A stretch of 64,000 nt of DNA, taken from NCBI GenBank assembly GCA_003693705.1, contig RBZT01000419.1:126923-190922 (forward strand), given 5' to 3'. This DNA is from Polymyxa betae A26-41 (Eukaryota > Protista > Endomyxa: Phytomyxea). Every line of letters starts with the position of its first letter. Position 1 is the first letter of the stretch. The translations under genes and the position numbers were made by a program. The notes beneath the pieces were generated by a model, which was given only the letters and a program-made list of their open reading frames with translations, ran no database searches and was not told where the DNA came from. Below, piece by piece: positions 20,225 to 64,000 of the stretch.

Positions 20225-21896
20225 TTAAGCTACAGCACTTGTCGAAACATCAAGGATTGGACACTGCAGCAAATCGGGATCGAATCGAATCGTGGCAGGC
20301 ATACCTACATGATCATATCAATGCTAGTTTCCATTAAGTAGTCACTAATTCTGACCAATTGACCGATAGCGCTTAACATGAGCCAGGATTGTTTTGATTT
20401 CTATAATAATCATCAGATTATCAAGGATGCTCGATAATAGTCATAGATACCTTTATCTGGAGAATCCAAAGCCGATACGTGCTTCTGACAAGTAATCAGA
20501 TCAGAGCTTGTCGCCAAAGTCGTGGCCAGATCTTCACGGATCAAACGGCAGAGATTTTCAAACGAATCTGGAGATCTCAGGGTAATTGACACCATGTAGG
20601 TAAAAGGCTCATTGCAGGCAGGTTTCTGCTCTATCATCGATCTTAAGCCTAAGCAAACGTTTTAGTCCTGTGTGATTACAAATTTTGCAGCCGTACATGA
20701 GAGGTTTTCGCCTCCTAATAACGCCACCGGAATTGCTGAAGCGCAGCATCCAGCACGATGGACTAAAGATTCCAATGCAGATCGACATTGTGGATTGGCG
20801 CAAGCGTTAGCCCTCCGGCATGGTTGCAATGTGGCGTAGTTATCGAATGTGGCGTCGGGAATGTTGCTGATGTTGTTCGATTTCATCAAATCATCAACAA
20901 CGCGATTGATACAAGCATTGCCATTGCCGTCATCATAACACGCCCTGATAATCAGACAGAATTAGATAGGTTAGGATATTGAGATGGTATATACCGTAAT
21001 AGCAAATCAGAATCAGATTTGACCCCTTGAAGGCGATCCAGTGACAACTTTTTGGCGACAGATCGCTGATAGCATGGCTCACAGATACGTTTTGGTAGCG
21101 GTTCGTGACTCTGGATGCAGTATTTGTCATTGATCTATTCAAAACGATAATGAGCATAGGTTGTATGCAAAATAATCAAGATGATGCCGACCTTGTTACA
21201 CTGAGTCTTAGCATAGATTTCTGGATGGTTGGAGCTGCCATTTCTCAATGACATTCGCCCAAAACTCTTTTAGAAAGAATTAGAAACATATTAGTGACAT
21301 GAGACATAATGATGAACCTTCTTGACGCAGGAAGTACAAGCAAGGTTTCGAAACTCAGCCTGATCAGAATTTATTAACATCATATCGTTGACGAGAGCTG
21401 CTTGAGCATCACAAGATTCAATAGTCTCAGGACATGCCATTTGGGTTGTGTACAAGATTTGATTTACGGTCTGAATGGCTCCCGCTCGAAGTCTGTCATC
21501 TGGCTTGCAAGCCAAGGCAACATTTCGGATTGGAGCTCGTAGCGTCTCACGACAACCAAGCCGATCTTGGCAAAAAAACTGATTCGAAGAAGTTTGTGTT
21601 GACATTGAGACATTTCCTGAATAATCATCAAACAATGAAATATCCTGTGCTGTAACGTATTTACCAAGGCATGAGCGTGCCATTGTCAGAAGAACATTGA
21701 CCTGATCAGCACAGGTGGAGTTTTCAGTTGGGAACACGAACTGGTCCAATGCTAGTTTCTGGCGCTGAATAGCAGGGATTTGTTCGGGTTTTAGTACAGC
21801 GATCACTTGTGGCGGTTGCTGTGCATTTTTGGGAACTGTGTTAGCCGATGTGATGGCCAGAATATAGACAATGAACTTGAGAGATTGGTTCAGCAT
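20225..21896 (-). CDS. Predicted secreted cysteine-rich protein of unknown function, multi-exon
   Basis: Signal-peptide-like N-terminus MLNQSLKFIVYILAITSA. Cys-rich helical segments (CADQ..SCLG..FCQDRLGC..LAC..MAC..SC..ACTSC; QPCRRANACANPQC..GCC). The last exon GMPATIRFDPDLLQCPILDVSTSAVA* has no TM or GPI tail. Confidence 0.7.
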
Positions 21897-22399
21897 CTTG
21901 TGATTTGTGATCGTGTTCCAACTGGCAACCCGTTTCTCGTCTGACGGAACATGATGTGAATCATGATGAAATGAAATCTGGATTGTTGAATCGCTAACCC
22001 AAGGTGACTCACGTCTCATTCCTTATCCTTGGTATAAATCAGCTGAGAGTCAGTTGAAGGAGTGCATCAAGATTCTGATCTCCATGCGATACAACTGTAT
22101 GGCGTCCCATAAACTATGATAAATATGTTGTAGAAAGTTCCCTTCCGGTACACCATACTGATGCATATTCAGGCTAATTGGGCAAGGCTGCCTTAAATAA
22201 GACAGCGAGACACCTTCGGCAAGTTTCGCAGTAAACCGTTAACATGATGTATGTCTCATTACTGCTCTGTAGAGGCTTGAAACACTGAAAAAATTTCAAG
22301 GTGAAGTTAATGGGTTTTTCAATAGAGCAGAAAACGGATCTCTTAGATCGAATTCTAGAGATAAATATATATTATGAATTTGTTACAGCTTTCATTGCT

Positions 22400-27641: not shown

Positions 27642-27791
27642 TGATTGTTAGGCTATCCTTCATTGGTGATTGTTAGGCTATCCTTCATTGGTGATTGTTA
27701 GGCTATCCTTCATTGGTGATTGTTAGGCTATCCTTCATTGGTGATTGTTAGGCTATCCTTCATTGGTGATTGTTAGGCTATCCTTCATTGG
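27642..27791. repeat. Perfect minisatellite, 6 x 25 bp (TGATTGTTAGGCTATCCTTCATTGG)
   Basis: Six identical units. The last unit overlaps the stop codon of the minus-strand helicase gene (27785-27787). Confidence 0.97.
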
Positions 27792-30700
27792 CTATACTTG
27801 TGGACTTTTAGAGCGGCAACAAGCGTCTGAGGATCAATGCCAAGATCGATGAGCTCTTTCTCACAATCTTTAAGAGTTTGGGGTAGCTGTGAATAAGCCA
27901 AACTGTGCAGAACAGACACTATCTGCTCATGAATCCACCGACGATGTGAATCTCTCCAAACTTCAACGCTGACATAAACATTTGCAGTTGGGTTGAACTT
28001 GCAGCTAGCAACATGAACATGAGCGTCGTCGCCACAATCGTGCAGGCAAAAGGCGCAGAACCGACATGGGCAGTTGTGACAGGTCAACGCTGCACAACCA
28101 TCGAAATCGATGAAGGCGGCGTGACAGCGAGGACAGGCTGGTGTTAAGAACTCGATGATCTTGCGACGAACTAGAACCGGAGCCTCTTCAGCTCGACGTT
28201 TAATCTCCAACTCAAGTCGAGCAGGGAAGTTCTGCTCGAATTCCTCGTTGATAGTCTTCTCCAGGACCTTCTCCTTTGACTTCATATATTGCTCAAATAC
28301 AGGTGCCGATACCCATTTAGCGATAGTGGCGTCACTGAAGGCAGGTGATACACATTCGGCAGCGCGAGTGTATGGGCAGATGATCATGCCGCCATGCAGA
28401 GACAGGATGCGAAGATCGCCATCAGATTCATGGATGACCAGCTGACTGAAACAATCTCGACAGAAGAAATGGAGCTGATCGGGCCGGGAGTCGATTGATG
28501 GGCAAGCAACACAATCGGAACGTTTGTAGTCCTCAAAGCAGATGCCGCACGTGACATTCATGGACATATTACGAAGATCTTCAGCAAGGCGAAGAGTCTC
28601 GCGAATACGAGCTGCTTCTTTATCGCGATCAGCCTCAAGGGTAGCGACTTCCTCCAGAGCCACTTCTTGAGAATGCTGAATGATGGCTTCATGGGCGGCC
28701 TTTAACGTTGCTGATGTTCGCTGTGCCTCTTTAACTAATCTGTCGATGCGAGCTTGCTCATCAAGGCGGCGCCTTTCAGCGTCTTCGTGGCATTTGCGGA
28801 TCTCGCAAGCGACGTCGGAAGCAATTTTTTGGCAAGTCTGAAGAGCGTCCAGCTCGGCCTTCTTTTTGTCAGCCATCGCCTTGTGAAGAAGCACATCGGC
28901 ATTCTGCTCGGTTTTTTTGATAGCCATATCGCTGGCAAGACGGGCATTCTCCATCTCGATATCTAACAGCTTCTTGGCCTGCACCTCCATCATGGCAGCA
29001 AATTTGTTGACCTTCTCCGTTTCGATCTGCAAAAGAGAACGTTTACGATTGGCTTCGATCTCGCAATTGAAACATTTCGCTTCGTAGATGGGAACGTAGC
29101 ACTTTCGAACGATTTGCATGTTGCATTCCGAACAGATATCAACAACTTGCTGGCGACATTTCGGTATTCTGCTTTCTTCACGACATGGCCGCATAATCTT
29201 GTGCCCATCAGGGCATTTATCAGGAAATCGCACAGAGCATTTCGCATGCGGGATGATGGCTGGATCGTGACAGGGTGATTGACATCTATGACCACATGGA
29301 AGCTCTGCTTCACATAAGGTGGAACAACCACCATGAGGAGTCAATGTCACGAAATCAACATGATCGCGAACCAACATCTCAATATCGTGTCGAGGACAGA
29401 CTGCTGGAATACCATCGGTTACACGGAATGATTCGAGGACTTTCTCCCAAACAGGACAGGCGTCTGCAAGACAGCTTCGATTACCGAACAGAATCAAGCC
29501 ATGTCGTGATCTTGTCAATAAGACATTGATACGTTCCGGCTGTTTCAGGAAACCAATGCGTCCATTTGGGTTATTTCGAACCAATGATACTAAGATGATG
29601 TCTGCTTGCTGACCCTGAAAGTTATCAACTGTTGATACACGAATCGAACAATGACTTTCAGTACGTCTGGGCGATCTAGTCGTCATCGGTGCATTCGAGT
29701 CGAAATAAACTTCATCTAGAGCGCTCTGGTCGGACTCGCCCAAAATTACTTCAATCTTGGCACGACTGAGGACTTCGCGAATCTCTAACAGCTGTCCGAG
29801 ATAAGGAGTGAGGATGACAATTTGGTCAGTTCGATAGCCTTGCTGGCAGAGGTAAAGCGCTGTACCCACCAAAAGCTTAGCCTCAAGAGGGTTGATCTTT
29901 GATGTTGATGTCACCAGACGACTGTTAGTTGAGAGTGTCTTTTCGGTCCGTTCTAGACCAAGATGATTCACGAAGATCAAGTCGTTTTTCAATCCTTTTA
30001 GGTGTGGGTAGCCCAATACTGATGCTCCATCAAGCAGGTCGTGATAAGTGATGCGGCGAATCACCGCCGAGATTTCTGGGCGCATACGATGCTGCGTTCG
30101 AAGAGTGACGAACGGATGACCGTTTATAATGAGCCGCTCGAAGGTTGATCGATTCAGATCGAGACCATTTTCAGATTCGACCGACAATCGGTGATTGTTG
30201 ATTTTTGGTCGGAGCTGCATATGATCACCAATCATGACGACTTTTTCTGTAAAAACATTGATAGAACCGAGGACATTGGCGTCGAGTAATTCGGCAGCTT
30301 CCTCCACTATCATCACATCGCATTTGACATCGTTTAATAGGGCACGATACTTAGCAGCACCCGTTGCTGTGCAACCGATAACTTTAGCCTTCATCAAGAT
30401 CGGTAATTCGTTCTTTTGGTTAATGGAAAGGCGTTCCTCAAGGAGCTGTTTGTACTGAACGAATTTTGAGGCAAGAATAGTCATCTGTTCAGCGCGGATC
30501 TCTTCCTGCCATGTCTTAAGTAATGCTAATCGCTCCTGATGGTTCAATGTCCAAAGGAAATACTTCTGCCGGGATGGATGACTCGTTGCATGACCTAATC
30601 GCCAATTCCGCCATAGATCAGCTGAAGAGCGAATAACTTGACCATCATAGGCCAACTCCAACGAATCATCACCGAAATCCTCAAGATCGAATTGTGAAGA

Positions 30701-32654
30701 CATTTCAGGATCTAAATGAGCACCAAAGAAAGGCCAATCGATGATAGGGCGTGAGACGACGGCTGTCAGTTCTTCAATATCGTTCTCGAGTTCTTTTAGC
30801 AATTGGTAAACATCGTGTAACCTGCCGCGGTAATGACCTTCCAGGGTTGGTGGACGTGAACGCCCATTTCGATGGCTGAGAACGTACTTTGATAGACGAT
30901 CGCTGCAGCAGCGGCCGCCAATCCGAACAATATCGGTTAAACCCGCATCCAAAAGAGCCTCCAGGAATTGATCTAATTGATGATTCGTATAACAGACGCA
31001 GAGAATTCGGGTGAAAGGCTTCTTCGACAAGGCCAATGCAATCAGAACACCGATGAGGGTTTTACCAGTTCCAGGCGGACCCTAAAGACAGATTTCAGGT
31101 CGATAAATGAGAAATGCAATATTCTCTCGTTACCTGAATTAATGCAAGTTTTTCATTGTTGTCAACACCGAAAGCAAAAGCACGTCGTTGCGCTTCATCA
31201 AGTGAAACCGCTTTCTCAAAAGTTTCTTCACCGAACTCTTTCAAAGCAGAATACATCGAATCGTCATCAATAGCGACAGAAGATGGATCGAACTTGGACG
31301 GGATTACCAGATGTTGATAGAACGGGAAATCCGACGAGCACTGAAGCGCTTCGAGAGCCGGTTTATAAGAGAAGAAATTGAAGCAGCCTTGGAGAAGTTC
31401 GAACTCATCGATGGAAGATTGAATATCAGCAAGGAGCTTAAACGACTTCTCATTCTCTACGGCGATTCCAACGACATAGCGTTTCTCAGCCGCTTCGTCA
31501 ATGTTGTAATCGCCGTCATCGCCTTGGCGATCATTCCAGTCGTAATTACGATCAGAAGCAAATTGGCGATGGATAACTTCGCCAAATACAATTGGATGGC
31601 GATCTTTGGCGATACAGACTAAAGATCCGATCGACAACCATCGTGATTTGCGCCAGAATTCCTTTTTATGCAAAGGTGACATTCTCTGGACAGCCACAGG
31701 AGCATCGAATGAGAGAATTGCACATGGCTGAGGACGAAGTTCGAATTCTTCGACACAGACGTTAGAGAAGACAATGGGGCATGGTTTGGCGAGATTATCA
31801 CGAAGCATGCTGACCATATCTTCACGAAGCAAACGGAAAGAACGATCAACCATACGCAAAGCAGGTTCGTCAAGAAGGAATCCATCTTCGCCATTCGCCA
31901 TTGGCAAAAACGTATTATCGGAGCTTTTGGATAGGTCGATTTCATCAGGGATGGGTGTGATCTGTATCCGTTTGAAATCGTAAAAATCATTGGCATGGCG
32001 CCCACCAGGTTGGTTTTCGATGGCACATAGTGATAAATCATTGGAGTCGCTTTCGCCTGGTTTGCGTTGAATGAGTGTAGAGATACGCTCGGCTCTGCTA
32101 ACGCCTTGAAGAAGAAGGGACTCTACCAGACTCTGCAGATGGTTCCAATTATCGGACATCTCACTTCTGACAACATCCAGATAGACGGAGCATAATAAGA
32201 ATAGAACTAAAGATTCGGTATCTTCCAACTTTCTAACACTAAGAACCTCTAGTAATCGCTGCATGAGGAACGGTACCGCCCAAATAGCGTTAAGAAGTGC
32301 TTGCAAAGAGGTCCGAGCAGCTGGATCATAACGAGCTGGAGTGTTAACGATTGATCTTAAAATCGGCATGACAAGCGTATTGACGATTTCGATATTATCG
32401 TTGGTGAATAGATTGACCTGACTAATCATGAGTATCTGCCGTAGGCGCTGCATGCCGAACTGGGAAGGCGAAACCAGTCGCCAGATGACTTCTAATGGTT
32501 CGATCTCACTCATACAGACTAAGGCATTCACGAACCGGACAGCACACTGATAACCACCCAGATCGGCATGCGGATTCGTCATCAGTTTCTCTAACATCGG
32601 TCGATCTAATGCCAAAGGTCGACGTGCCCGATGGGCAGCTAAATTCGAGTTCAT
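27785..32654 (-). CDS. ZNFX1-type UPF1-like SF1 RNA helicase with NF-X1-like Zn knuckles, coiled coil and C-terminal RING1 + RBR-type Rcat
   Basis: ZNFX1-family signature PGGRHANDFYDFKRIQITPIPDEI and DRSFRLLREDM. Walker A IQ|GPPGTGKT is joined by a 52-nt intron (31082-31133). Also CYTNHQLDQFLE, IVEEAAE, IGDHMQLRP, QHRMRPEIS, TPYLGQ, TVDNFQG and RINVLLTRSRHGL. C-terminus CGIC..HFFCRDC..CP..C, then CPRC..FDGCAALTC..FCAFC..H. A small upstream exon near 32737-32834 is possible. Confidence 0.92.
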
Positions 32655-33543
32655 CGAAGGCCATCCACATTCGCCCGATTTCTGCTTCTGTGCATCTCGC
32701 CTACCTAGATATGGATGAACGTGAGCAATTACTTACAAAGTGAATACGTGCAACGAACCAGAATGTTTGGACCAAGAAGAGCGAGAAATGGATGGATTAG
32801 GGATCCAGTTATGATTCTGACTGGCAGCCCTCATCTGTTTTGCGAGAAACAATCTGTTGAAGCTCGCTAATGTATGCTATAGCACACTAGATGTGCAGAG
32901 GTAATGATTATCATAACAATGGGACAGGTCAAAAGAAGGACACTATAACGGAGAACGGCGTAGCCTCCTTCAATGTCACACGGACTGCGTAGACGCAACT
33001 TGATACTGGCCTCTGTATCATTTCATGGAAACAAAGTACAAACTGTATCGCACTAAGTTTAAGAAGTGATATTCTGTGCGTGTGTGCGGCCAGGCCATTT
33101 AATTAACGTATTATTACAGGGTATCAAATGATATAGTCAGCAGTACGTGAGTTTGACAGGGATGTCGTTCTGTGCAGTAAAACTTGGCAGTAAACCAATA
33201 TTATTAAGCACGACACCCGTCTATAGACAATGATTAAAATGACACGATATGCAATCTGAGATCATGTTTTGGTCACGATTATTCATTATCAAAAATGAAC
33301 ATACACCGGGAACCCAATTACGGAAAATAGACTCATAGAAGCTGCGTTTACTCTAGTTAATGCTATGCGACGAGGTTCTTCCTTCCTGCATTAAACAATG
33401 CTCACGATGATGCTATATTTCCACAGCGTCAGAAAAAACTCTTGCTGTAGAGAGAAATATAATGGTGGAAGGATCGAGTCGATCAGAGTACATGTATGTA
33501 ATAATCAAGGATCAGTTAGACGGCGACCATATCAATCCAAATC

Positions 33544-49458: not shown

Positions 49459-51528
49459 TCATTGGGGCAAAGCCATACATTGAAGTAGGGGCACGACATT
49501 GCCCACAGCATCTTCTACTCTGAATCTGGCCTCAAAGACATCAACTTCGATGTCAGCACAAAGTACAGTAATGTCTTCATCGTATTCATCGCTTGATGAA
49601 CAAATTTGTCGTGCAATTTCGATGCTGGAAGATATAATCAACTTGGATTTTTGTTGGAAAATAATGAGAAATCTTCTCAAAACACTCGCAAAACCCAGAG
49701 CACTTTTAGAATCGACATTCAGTTGCTGTACAGAGTGCAACAAAAAATGAATAGTCCTTGCAGCCAAAATGGCAGCTGTCCTTCTGCAATATACTTGGAT
49801 CTGATCGAATAGGGCAAACATATCAGGCTGTGGGTTGTTTTGAGCATAAACCTTGAGAACAACAACGTGCCAATTTAGAACTTCTCCTATTAACTTTTCG
49901 ATATTGGAGACCATAGAACAACTGATGGCCTGTTTACTTTCACCTTGACGAATTATAGTGCCGATCTCATCAACTGTATCTAATAAACTGGAATCGTAAA
50001 GAGCAACATTTCTTTCAAGATAAATCGATCTTTCACGGCCAATTTGTTCCAGCTGGTCAGCTACTTCAGCACCACCGTAAAGATTAAATAAGGCATCGAA
50101 ATCAGCTGATGAACATTCTTCTTCAGAATCAGGAAGTCGGGGATAACTGGCAAAAAACTGGGTCATTTCAGCACAAGGATGGTGTTCGACATCCTCTGGA
50201 TGCTGACTTGGTCTTAGGGTCATTTCTTCTTGATGAAAGATCTCGACTTCAGAGTCGTCTCCCTCTTCTGGAGATTCTCTATCAGATGCAGACAGCATTT
50301 GTGCAGACGAAAACATTTCATTGAGTGTATGCGGCGATGAAGGAGGAGAAAGCGAAACAGGTTTTCTTCCAGGTAAATCGTTGAATACAGATTCTTGTGG
50401 TACGCTGATGTTCGGTACGATACTTTTGGCTTTATCAAGCACTTCTGAAGTTAAGACACCACTAGCCTGCAACAACTCTTGGCCTGATTGAGCTGCTGTA
50501 ATTCGAACACCCTCGAATACATCCTGAAGCCAGCCTGTACTCACATTCTCATTCCGCGTTGAAGACGGGGACAAAACCGGTGACAATCTGTTGCTATAGC
50601 TGCTATGAAAAGACTTATTGGAAGGCGGATGTTTCTCGTCAGCCTCCCATTCATCATTCCAGGACGCTGAGTCCATTGGAATATGGGGGATTTGATGTAG
50701 TGTACCGGGCGCACTCGGGTGGAAAGCAGCTGGCGAGGAGGATCTGGACACAGAATGAGAGAGAACATGTGGTAAAATTTGGCCTGTATGTGGGCTATGC
50801 ATTTGTGATGATTGCGAGTCAAAAGATTGAACTTGAACAGAGTTTGATGGGATTTTGGTACTTTGAGCCTGGGTATGATGATCTTGAAACAATTCAAAGA
50901 AATCTTGTTCAGTACGAAACGAAGTTTGCGGCGAGCTGACAGGAGCATCTGCAGATGAATTAGATAGCACGCCTGGCTTTTTCACAAGAGCCTCAGTGGC
51001 AACTTGAATCAGCTCACGTCCTGACTGACCAGCTGAGGCTTTCACGTTTTCCAAAACAGATCCAAGCGATTCAAACCATTTAGATCTCGATCCGCTACGA
51101 GTCCTATTCCTATTAGGAGAAAGCTGCTGACTTTCAGAGAGCTGTAGAGAAGCCTGTTGCCCTTGCTGACCATCTTCGGGCATTAGGATAAGATCAGCAG
51201 CCGATGAGGTAACCTTAGCAGCGAACGAACCCCAACCCCATCCTTCCGATAATGTATCATCTGGAGATAAAACCCTATGGTCTGTAATGCGGGATTCAAG
51301 GGATGATACAGACTTAGCATTATCCACAAATAAATTCAAAGCTGCAGAATGTGGGATATCTGATATAGGACTAGGCAATTCAATAGATGGCAAATCGGGT
51401 GGATTTGCATCAGAGCCAAGCTCTTCCAAATTGACGTATTCAGTTCGAGGGTCAGGGACAGGTTCAGACACAGCCTTAATCTCTTCAGCTTCTTGATCAC
51501 TCCAGAAATCGTCATCCCAATTGGACAT
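49459..51528 (-). CDS. FAM114-like protein, intronless, long disordered N-terminus
   Basis: WGWGSFAAKVTSSA motif and FDALFNLYGGAEVADQLEQI. These resemble recalled FAM114A / plant homologue motifs (WGxWG..., FD..F.IYGG.E.LE.LE.L). Confidence 0.6.
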   Translation of the reverse strand: MSNWDDDFWSDQEAEEIKAVSEPVPDPRTEYVNLEELGSDANPPDLPSIELPSPISDIPHSAALNLFVDNAKSVSSLESRITDHRVLSPDDTLSEGWGWGSFAAKVTSSAADLILMPEDGQQGQQASLQLSESQQLSPNRNRTRSGSRSKWFESLGSVLENVKASAGQSGRELIQVATEALVKKPGVLSNSSADAPVSSPQTSFRTEQDFFELFQDHHTQAQSTKIPSNSVQVQSFDSQSSQMHSPHTGQILPHVLSHSVSRSSSPAAFHPSAPGTLHQIPHIPMDSASWNDEWEADEKHPPSNKSFHSSYSNRLSPVLSPSSTRNENVSTGWLQDVFEGVRITAAQSGQELLQASGVLTSEVLDKAKSIVPNISVPQESVFNDLPGRKPVSLSPPSSPHTLNEMFSSAQMLSASDRESPEEGDDSEVEIFHQEEMTLRPSQHPEDVEHHPCAEMTQFFASYPRLPDSEEECSSADFDALFNLYGGAEVADQLEQIGRERSIYLERNVALYDSSLLDTVDEIGTIIRQGESKQAISCSMVSNIEKLIGEVLNWHVVVLKVYAQNNPQPDMFALFDQIQVYCRRTAAILAARTIHFLLHSVQQLNVDSKSALGFASVLRRFLIIFQQKSKLIISSSIEIARQICSSSDEYDEDITVLCADIEVDVFEARFRVEDAVGNVVPLLQCMALPQ

Positions 51529-52072
51529 AGTATATAGCGTAATCCAATCCAATCAGTGGCGAAATGTTCTAATCGAGCACAAAAACGAAAAATGGGCTCT
51601 TTCCTGTACAGGCGTCAGCAAAGCATGATGAGCCAGAAACAATAAGCAGATGTGATTCACCAAATGCTGTTTGTGAGAAGGGTGGGCTGCGCAAACCTGT
51701 AGTATTGCAAATGCAGTGCCTTGCTGAATAATCATTATCAGCGATTTACGATTTACGTCGAATTGAATTCATACCAATTCAGTTACTAATACCAACATTT
51801 TTTCGAGTTTCAAAATCTTACGTTTAATTCTGTTTTTATCGTATGTTTGCCTAAGTAATTCAAGAGTTCCGTCGTTCTTATCAGAGAACGGCTGGCTAAT
51901 CCATGTGATAATCTTGCGAATGAGGATAATGATCCGGATTGCAATTAAACAAATGGGTATGCATTTGTAATTATTGCAATTATGTGGACTTAGTGATTCT
52001 AAGGAGAACTAACATGATAATCATCGCTCTTATTTTTCAATGTGATTTTGGATTGCGCCTGTTCATATACAT

Positions 52073-63141: not shown

Positions 63142-64000
63142 TCAGCGGTGTGAGCGGTACTTCTTTAACCTGCGCCGGTGTCAGTCGAACATCTCCCTCT
63201 TTCAAACGATAGGCGTCAATGTAGCGCTCTGATTTGCGAGCAAACCGGCGGATGCTGGATATGGACACTGTAATTAAAGCCAATGGCACCATTGTCNNNN
63301 NNNNNNNNNNNNNNNNNNNNNNNNNNNNNNNNNNNNNNNNNNNNNNNNNNNNNNNNNNNNNNNNNNNNNNNNNNNNNNNNNNNNNNNNNNNNNNNNNNNN
63401 NNNNNNNNNNNNNNNNNNNNNNNNNNNNNNNNNNNNNNNNNNNNNNNNNNNNNNNNNNNNNNNNNNNNNNNNNNTACCATAATCTGCACGACACGAGTCC
63501 CATCAGGAGCCTCAAACCAGCCATCCCGGAGTTTGCAAACATTTTTCCCTCCGTCTTTGAGATTGAGTCGGCTCGCAACCAGGGCGTTTTCAGCCATTGC
63601 ATGGTGGTTTGATGAATTATCATAAGCCACCAATGCAATGCACCCGGGATGGAGAATTTCGAATATTTTCAGCATCTTCATTGTTTGCTGAGCAAGATGC
63701 TCATTCGTAAAATATCCGTCTTTGTTTGCTCCTGGGTACATTATTACCGTGGAGTCCAATGGAATCTCCGGATTAAGCTCTGCAATTTCCTTAGGAAGAC
63801 GTAACAGTCCATGACACTGACAGAGAAAAGCAGAAACCATAATTGAAGCACCAGGTCCCTTCGGCCGGATCTCTTTTCTTGTTTTCTCTTGCCAGATTCG
63901 CCGAGAACCATCATGGGCCTGAAATATACACTCGTCCTGAGTAACGAGAACAACTTTACTCTCTTCAAGACATAATTCAGGCTGAATACAGGTTTCCATC
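63142..64000 (-). mobile_element. Degenerate DDE transposase (IS630/Tc1-like family common in fungi and protists), runs off the window
   Basis: VLVTQDECIFQAHDG, PKGPGASIMVSAFLC, DGYFTNEHL, AYDNSSNHH and IRRFARKSERYIDAY. The conserved end KKYRSHR* lies in a shifted frame. An N gap interrupts the ORF. Confidence 0.8.
63297..63474. other. Assembly gap (N run)
   Basis: Run of n bases inside the transposase. Confidence 0.99.

Follow-up and report, generated by a model that had tools for sequence, protein, structure and literature searches.

A single minus-strand gene in the 64,000-nucleotide window of the Polymyxa betae A26-41 genome analysed here (assembly GCA_003693705.1, contig RBZT01000419.1, positions 126,923 to 190,922; all coordinates below are those of the window) encodes a superfamily 1 (SF1) RNA helicase of the ZNFX1 type, fused to a C-terminal ubiquitin-ligase cassette of the RBR class in which the IBR domain is missing and a long helix connects RING1 directly to Rcat. 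We give about an even chance to the reading that this ZNFX1-subfamily helicase and its IBR-less RING1-helix-Rcat unit would together form an RNA-gated cysteine-relay ubiquitin ligase (E3), probably serving in the defence against foreign RNA. Judged by analogy, the protein probably attaches ubiquitin to RNA-bound targets in the way of the antiviral human ZNFX1, with different and widely swapped parts.

The ZNFX1-type helicase proposed in the initial annotation of this DNA was borne out: the best solved-structure match of the core is human ZNFX1 (PDB 9q9z, E = 3.6e-75), 44 orders of magnitude ahead of the next one, UPF1 (E = 1.6e-31), Pfam places AAA_11 (E = 5e-19) and AAA_12 (E = 4e-39) on it, and the helicase motifs are intact. 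The Walker B motif reads EEAAE (30304-30290), a deviant EEAA form that is described as a ZNFX1 trait (10.1101/2025.10.14.682297). Identities as UPF1 or aquarius were considered and rejected. A metagenome scan yielded 9 SF1 helicases, all distant (22-43% identity), which do not enter the analysis. The 1C insertion of human ZNFX1 is reported in the same preprint (10.1101/2025.10.14.682297) to hold an acidic plug helix; the insertion is present in the Polymyxa protein and contains an acidic stretch, with comparable stretches at a like distance in Spongospora and in fungal relatives. The exon 2 product, which precedes the core, aligns with its Spongospora orthologue at 34% identity over 518 columns and only weakly with human ZNFX1 (E = 0.021) or the Pfam ZNFX1 entry (E = 0.02, below its cut-off). 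Comparison with human ZNFX1 returned no direct match to the human ARM domain in this N-terminal helical region, which from its position is likely ARM-like. The nearest named relative, protein P0004 of Spongospora subterranea, has the same architecture, with 47% identity in the helicase and 46% in the cassette.

That helicase and ligase belong to one polypeptide is settled by the gene structure. The initial annotation had set the open reading frame boundary at 32654; two introns move the start to 32834 and give a three-exon gene (32834-27785) of 1647 amino acids, counted from its longest in-frame open reading frame. The stop-to-stop frames 31095-32732 and 27785-31081 are joined across a 52-nucleotide GT..AG intron (31133-31082) that is absent from the contigs of all three non-source sequencing runs (X3, X6 and X12, from three studies) and retained in the DNA run X2, and the second intron (32758-32705) is absent from the contigs of two of the three (X3 and X6). 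These runs are without an RNA label on record, and their cDNA nature is implied by the intron skips themselves. Two raw RNA runs, sampled to 6%, yielded 0 reads. As one spliced X3 contig of 5064 bases covers 27762-32931, from helicase through ligase, the fusion is present in a single molecule. A chimera of the assembly or gene model is ruled out by this contig, by the exon that helicase and ligase share and by the identical fusion in Spongospora; a pseudogene is ruled out by the open frame, the splicing, the intact motifs and the freedom of zinc ligands and catalytic cysteine from strain changes. Between run X12 and the reference 20 codons differ, 8 silently and 12 non-silently (ratio of non-silent to silent polymorphism, pN/pS, 0.44; p = 0.06), with none of the changes at a zinc ligand or at the putative catalytic cysteine.

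The cassette has a wide family behind it. Its 271 C-terminal residues match 2,433 representatives at E <= 0.001 and 1,195 clusters at E <= 1e-10, counts that take in full RBRs matching by Rcat alone and some false matches; since 1,195 clusters match at the stricter threshold, the arrangement is not due to chance, and by sequence it is a large protist family of about 2,400 clusters. Word-index searches recovered just 3 and 9 cassette relatives, and single-protein scans of viral and prokaryote contigs, which reach close relatives only, returned none. The per-residue figures that follow come from the query aligned with the best 149 of the 2,433 (the best 150 minus P0006, a repeat-rich false match). 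Across this alignment and in the predicted structure the two zinc domains that the initial annotation had called a RING1 and an Rcat-like domain are found where it had put them and are of RBR type by fold. An AlphaFold2 model built on 91 sequences (mean predicted local distance difference test, pLDDT, 94.9; predicted template-modelling score, pTM, 0.73) runs from a RING through short helices, a 54-residue helix and a second zinc domain to C-terminal helices, and its top Foldseek matches are all RBRs, namely HHARI, RNF216 and HOIL-1 (best E = 2.8e-4). In VIA-align the RING1 half scores from Z 9.4 down to 7.3 over 89-96 residues against RNF144A, parkin, ARIH2, HOIP and HOIL-1, led by RNF144A (Z 9.4, root-mean-square deviation 3.2, 94 aligned) and parkin (Z 8.6). 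The second half best matches residues 634-772 of RNF216 (7m4m; Z 6.4, root-mean-square deviation 4.6, 110 aligned), at a Z that can be common. ESM Atlas gave two eukaryotic clusters at 0.95, with RBR clusters at 0.92.

RING1 itself carries the features of a domain that relays ubiquitin. Its ligands are C1394, C1397, C1409, H1420, C1423, C1426, C1451 and C1459; the initial annotation was right about the domain and is corrected in the third ligand, which is C1409, the second of two nearby cysteines, the first being Gly in 128 of 136 relatives. Of 130 relatives, 124 have a zinc loop II that exceeds the canonical two residues and just 4 have the linchpin Arg, a combination described as expected of a relaying RING1 and not of a direct activator (PMC9834252; 10.1101/2025.09.05.674436). 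We weighed the relay against a simpler view, in which RING1 is an ordinary RING, or the unit merely binds ubiquitin or E2, with an IBR-like fold of structural or ubiquitin-binding role as its second zinc domain. That domain does sit where an IBR would, its +2 His is absent, it is separated from RING1 by a long helical stretch, and IBR and Rcat are reported to share their fold and to bind ubiquitin alike (PMC9834252). Against this stand, beside the missing linchpin and long loop II, the Gly-Cys cysteine at the position of Cys1545, which aligns with the Gly-Cys of HHARI RING2 and, while not part of the zinc-ligand pattern, is conserved in 147 of 149 filled rows, and full RBRs in which the same domain follows a separate IBR; we consider the simpler view very unlikely.

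The residue two places after that cysteine is Ala in 144 of 149 rows and His in one of 148, and the Cys-His-Glu/Gln triad that is common, if not universal, among RBRs is not formed in the cassette. The initial annotation had noted both the kept Gly-Cys cysteine and the missing His; both hold, and the latter is no oddity of the Polymyxa gene, as Ala in place of His is on the alignment a family-wide trait. RNF216 is reported to be active without a +2 His (PMC7458406), and HOIL-1 to lack it and rely on a distal His (10.1101/2022.11.13.516300; PMC9834252). The tail behind the cysteine keeps C1565 in 139 rows, H1570 in 147, H1572 in 144 and C1576 in 147, and because the second zinc site takes four ligands, one or two of these should be spare.

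The absence of an IBR, also claimed initially, is upheld by the continuous helix of the model, by row spacing and by the third-place Rcat of full RBRs. The last RING1 ligand (C1459) and the first Rcat cysteine (C1532) enclose a spacer of 72 residues that contains no Cys or His, of which 54 are predicted as helix; the roughly 60 helical residues of the initial annotation are thus right as to the helix and corrected as to the spacer. The helix is highly charged (38% E/R/K), and in 144 rows 74-108 residues (median 85) separate Rcat from RING1 ligand 7, compared with about 111 in the full RBR P0001. A residue of the S/T/D/N set, a possible helix cap or hinge, lies 22 residues ahead of Rcat in 57% of 134 rows; the Polymyxa protein has a proline close to that position, yet the helix is unbroken in its model. 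Two full RING1-IBR-Rcat proteins are among the relatives, P0001 (Pfam IBR, E = 6e-9) and P0281, a fusion to a DEAH-type helicase, and in both the cassette profile falls on the third zinc domain (E = 1e-52 and 3e-42), with hardly any match to the IBR. Because both carry the same Rcat in third place, it is the Rcat that was kept and the IBR that was lost. P0281 continues behind its full RBR into a second, tandem helix-Rcat-helices unit; its label is that of an insect assembly, and it may stem from a passenger organism or a transfer.

To see what the cassette is attached to, Pfam was run on 95 of the 149 best relatives, the longer ones, which gave 46 protein kinases, 12 SF1 helicases and 2 U-box proteins. 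The fusion to a helicase thus recurs, with the qualification that the cassette stands more often behind a kinase. Helicase fusions are named in Spongospora, Rhodelphis marinus and the choanoflagellate Salpingoeca rosetta, kinase fusions in Chromera, Bigelowiella (by its Joint Genome Institute code), Paulinella and Polykrikos. A kinase directly before the IBR-less cassette is the commonest form (P0015, P0017, P0055, P0072 and others), in some cases with ankyrin, LRR, MATH or ubiquitin domains in front, and these proteins resemble a receptor-kinase-E3 family of algae and protists. The cassette also occurs in a second helicase lineage (P0037, P0049, P0280, P0282 and P0152) with an extra domain before RING1, and PF26600/PF26601 are precomputed on three of these five proteins. 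Neither an IBR-less RING1-Rcat family nor its fusion to ZNFX1 was described in the literature searched, a search that could miss mentions in subscription journals, supplements and domain surveys.

Such a distribution could also be that of a portable self-ubiquitination or turnover tag, carried by signalling proteins such as kinases and helicases and limiting the life span of its carrier with no RNA switch. Many unrelated carriers have the cassette at their C-terminus (in 113 of 131 the DAHxH motif is followed by at most 120 residues), kinases dominate among them, and the K48-linked chains made by the RZ domain are reported to drive the turnover of human ZNFX1 itself. The same preprint (10.1101/2025.09.05.674436), however, describes this self-tagging as RNA-stimulated and needed for viral restriction, so that turnover and RNA gating are not exclusive, and the helicase fusions keep a rigid coiled-coil stalk between helicase and ligase; as a full account, the tag is decidedly unlikely.

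Seen from the helicase, the cassette is one of several tails. Among the 120 helicases nearest to P0004, a list weighted toward fungi, only 2 carry it, whereas about 97 carry PF17866 and CbxX/SpoVK-type AAA+ names, 3 carry PF00644, which we take to be PARP, and one has an RZ-type name. These helicases with AAA+, PARP or RZ tails are the nearest helicase relatives (36-40% identity), and those with AAA+ and PARP tails have the same short knuckle and coiled-coil stalk. In helicase trees of 37 and 28 rows (for the smaller one, four fungal rows, a near-copy and four cassette bearers on long branches were removed; both sample RZ-type sequences thinly), cassette bearers interleave with AAA+, PARP and zinc-finger-array/RZ forms, the labels of P0231 and P0254 (AAA+ start only) and of P0249 and P0160 (zinc-finger array, RZ match not listed) having been assigned by us. 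A single clade of 12 cassette-bearing helicases is rejected (approximately unbiased test, p-AU 8e-97, LG+G4, quick search), and four further fusions lie on a separate helicase branch; in a cassette tree of 39 rows, a single clade of helicase-fused copies is neither supported nor rejected (p-AU 0.053). On these sequences, tails have been exchanged repeatedly on one helicase subfamily, a recurring swap and not a one-off; the cassette may have been gained several times or may have been an early tail later replaced by others. The effector swap first proposed for this gene therefore stands as swapping on a single helicase subfamily and falls as an event specific to one protist, the same fusion being found in 12 of the best 149 cassette relatives. 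Exchangeable effector tails are a pattern of sensor-effector defence proteins. Among the other forms, most of the nearest helicases (within P0161-P0277) are fungal proteins of about 2,300 residues with CbxX/SpoVK-type AAA+ tails and make up a large family, and in the protist proteins P0181, P0216 and P0250 a ZNFX1-like helicase is followed at the C-terminus by one or two PARP-like domains, which makes them candidate RNA-gated ADP-ribosyltransferases and sister designs to the Polymyxa gene.

In the mechanism that we propose for the RNA-gated relay, single-stranded RNA would displace the acidic plug from the helicase groove, as in human ZNFX1, with ATP turnover and clustering to follow; RING1 would bind E2~ubiquitin in its open state, and the ubiquitin would then be transferred to Cys1545 while the helix that precedes Rcat holds it as the donor. 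The corresponding helix is described as binding donor ubiquitin in HOIL-1 and RNF216 (PMC9834252). Because a helix of about 80 Å replaces the IBR, either a hinge within it or a second protomer on the RNA would be needed; a homodimer prediction for the cassette (0.45 vs. 0.35 for a control) speaks neither way. One of the invariant C1565, H1570 and H1572, whichever is not needed for zinc, could act as the base, and the ubiquitin may end up on the protein itself, on its neighbours or on the RNA. Ordinary RBRs are reported to be switched on by ubiquitin at a RING1-IBR site (PMC9834252); since that site is absent here, switching is likely to fall to the fused front sensor, a helicase in this protein and a kinase in many relatives. 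Human ZNFX1 is described as an RNA-activated E3 (10.1101/2025.09.05.674436; PMC13710534), and its pair of a RING-like domain and an RZ cysteine as RBR-like and possibly trans-acting (10.1101/2025.10.14.682297), so that the exchange of effectors may have been functionally conservative.

A number of observations weigh against this reading. Each mechanistic step is argued by analogy, and the acidic stretch is no more than a candidate counterpart of the human plug helix (residues 828-836), in a 1C insertion that is about 120 residues shorter than the human one when aligned to 9q9z. The long NF-X1 stalk that human ZNFX1 requires is mostly missing, and the straight 54-residue helix keeps RING1 and Rcat far apart in the model. 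The RNF216 match is middling, Pfam IBR_1 reaches 18.1 bits on the cassette against a cut-off of 27, and the literature searched contained no solved structure or assay for any IBR-less RBR. Kinases, which are not RNA sensors, outnumber helicases as partners; the excess of silent changes between strains is weak and non-significant; and the gene lies among housekeeping genes.

The last point bears also on the biological role, for the RNA-gated ligase may be real and serve housekeeping RNA surveillance or small-RNA silencing, in the manner of Hrr1, nematode ZNFX-1 or UPF1, instead of antiviral defence. HRR1 and C. elegans ZNFX1 are reported to work in RNA interference (10.1101/2025.10.14.682297), the architecture is intact between Polymyxa and Spongospora at the above helicase identity, the gene is expressed in three studies, and a Pfam scan of the window finds ordinary neighbours (Rpc34, Rft1, DnaJ, WD40, myotubularin and an IQ protein). 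Repeated swaps among AAA+, PARP, RZ and cassette tails would, however, be unusual in a housekeeping factor, and Plasmodiophora brassicae, a member of the class of Spongospora, is described as having no recognizable RNA-dependent RNA polymerase (RdRP) or Dicer (PMC13547706), an indirect argument from another species that weakens the case for an RdRP partner. Effector swapping and this absence together would favour defence over silencing, and we consider the housekeeping or silencing role unlikely.

More broadly, and as a doubtful generalization that we put forward tentatively, the IBR-less RBR branch with its thousands of members in protists and algae may be a portable innate-immunity effector of unicellular organisms that has shed the ubiquitin-sensing IBR and fires only when the fused sensor clusters RING1 and cysteine sites held apart on a rigid helix; on ZNFX1-type helicases it would use unrelated parts to recreate the way in which human ZNFX1 ubiquitinates RNA with a split site. 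RBRs are defined by three zinc domains, with the IBR part of their allosteric switch, and an IBR-less family would show a minimal machine under another gating. An RNA-sensing helicase coupled to a two-step E3 would likewise be a design reached with different parts, and the ZNFX1 helicase a sensor with exchangeable effectors (E3, PARP and AAA+) across eukaryotes. Both questions can be addressed in Salpingoeca rosetta, a harmless laboratory species with a complete copy (PTSG_05285).

Table 1. Coordinates of the helicase-ligase gene and its encoded domains within the window
Feature	Coordinates	Strand	Evidence
Exon 1, coding part	32759..32834	-	ATG at 32834; spliced contigs, transcript contig to at least 32931
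54-nt GT..AG intron, adds upstream exon	32705..32758	-	Skipped in contigs of X3 and X6
Exon 2: N-terminal helical region (likely ARM-like domain) and helicase 1B region	31134..32704	-	Spongospora alignment
52-nt GT..AG intron splitting Walker A (Q|GPPGTGKT)	31082..31133	-	Skipped in X3, X6 and X12
Coding part of exon 3 (1098 aa), with helicase core, knuckles, coiled coil and entire ligase cassette	27785..31081	-	Frame and spliced contigs
ZNFX1-type SF1 helicase core with intact Walker A, Walker B and motifs V and VI	29507..31136	-	Pfam, PDB match
Candidate RNA-mimic plug: acidic stretch of the 1C insertion (20 aa with net charge -8)	30656..30715	-	Composition
Short region of Cys/His zinc knuckles, NF-X1-like, with about two to three units	29060..29398	-	Motif reading, weak Pfam match
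Coiled-coil-like stalk, 166 residues, without Pro or Gly	28565..29062	-	Composition only
RBR-type RING1, long Zn loop II, without linchpin Arg	28352..28549	-	VIA-align, alignment
Long E/R/K-rich helix where IBR would be	28145..28303	-	AlphaFold2 helix 99-152, mean pLDDT 94.9
Rcat (RING2); predicted catalytic Cys1545 at 28096-28094; invariant DCG-x-DAH-x-H-V-x-x-C tail	28001..28135	-	Alignment, fold
C-terminal helices after Rcat, RNF216-like	27788..27970	-	Model; 7m4m 634-772

The region between helicase and ligase is as the initial annotation described it, with few NF-X1-like knuckles, no long stalk and a coiled coil close to the 170 residues first estimated. Pfam finds one weak zf-NF-X1 match (E = 0.058) in the knuckle region, which has one C-x-H-x-C unit compared with 4 in an RZ-type diatom protein and 4-11 in the comparison proteins, and alignment with the diatom protein stops after about two knuckles. 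The C-terminus, too, was rightly taken as something other than an RZ or NF-X1 finger: five C-terminal pieces gave 0 Pfam matches to RZ at E <= 10, and either identity was rejected, the position being occupied by the RBR-type cassette according to the fold matches. At its 3' end the gene runs into six perfect copies of a 25-bp unit (27642-27791) that start in its final codons and provide its stop codon, an array that is collapsed in assemblies. Three further minus-strand frames in the window are without a Pfam match: 63274-63999, which runs into an N gap and presumably resembles a DDE-type transposase; 49459-51552, of 697 residues, rich in Ser and Pro, which contains an internal repeat and is helical at its C-terminus; and 21291-22022, of 243 residues, a possible small secreted protein in which a hydrophobic leader precedes a Cys-rich body.

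Compared with known systems, the Polymyxa protein shares with human ZNFX1 the SF1 helicase with its EEAA Walker B motif, the 1C insertion, NF-X1-like knuckles after the core and, by prediction, a C-terminal two-part E3 that pairs an E2-binding RING-like domain with a separate catalytic cysteine. The ZNFX1 tail is described as a long zinc-finger stalk, Z-RING/Miz and RZ (10.1101/2025.09.05.674436; PMC13710534); in the Polymyxa protein RING1 and Rcat of RBR type replace the latter two, two or three knuckles and a coiled coil stand against twelve zinc fingers, and the 1C insertion is the shorter one. With RBR ligases (RNF216, 7m4m/8eb0, as the nearest, HOIL-1, 8eaz, HHARI, 5udh, and RNF144A, 1wim) it has in common the RING1 fold with extension helices, the helix-Rcat unit and the Gly-Cys position; RNF216 has similar C-terminal helices, and RNF216 and HOIL-1 are likewise without the +2 His. 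It differs from them in having neither IBR nor RING1-IBR allosteric ubiquitin site, and in its charged helix of near-constant length and its DCG-x-DAH-x-H tail with spare conserved Cys and His. The plant I/Helicase RBR subfamily described in PMC2904391 is also a fusion of RNA helicase and RBR, and the DEAH-type P0281 has the same Rcat subtype, but the plant proteins combine an SF2 DEAD/DEAH helicase with a complete RING-IBR-RING, unlike the SF1, ZNFX1-type and IBR-less Polymyxa protein. Fungal and protist ZNFX1-like helicases with AAA+, PARP or RZ tails differ from it in the effector. As the RBR family is defined by three domains (PMC2904391), the Polymyxa protein falls outside that definition as it does outside canonical ZNFX1, and most plausibly it works like both.

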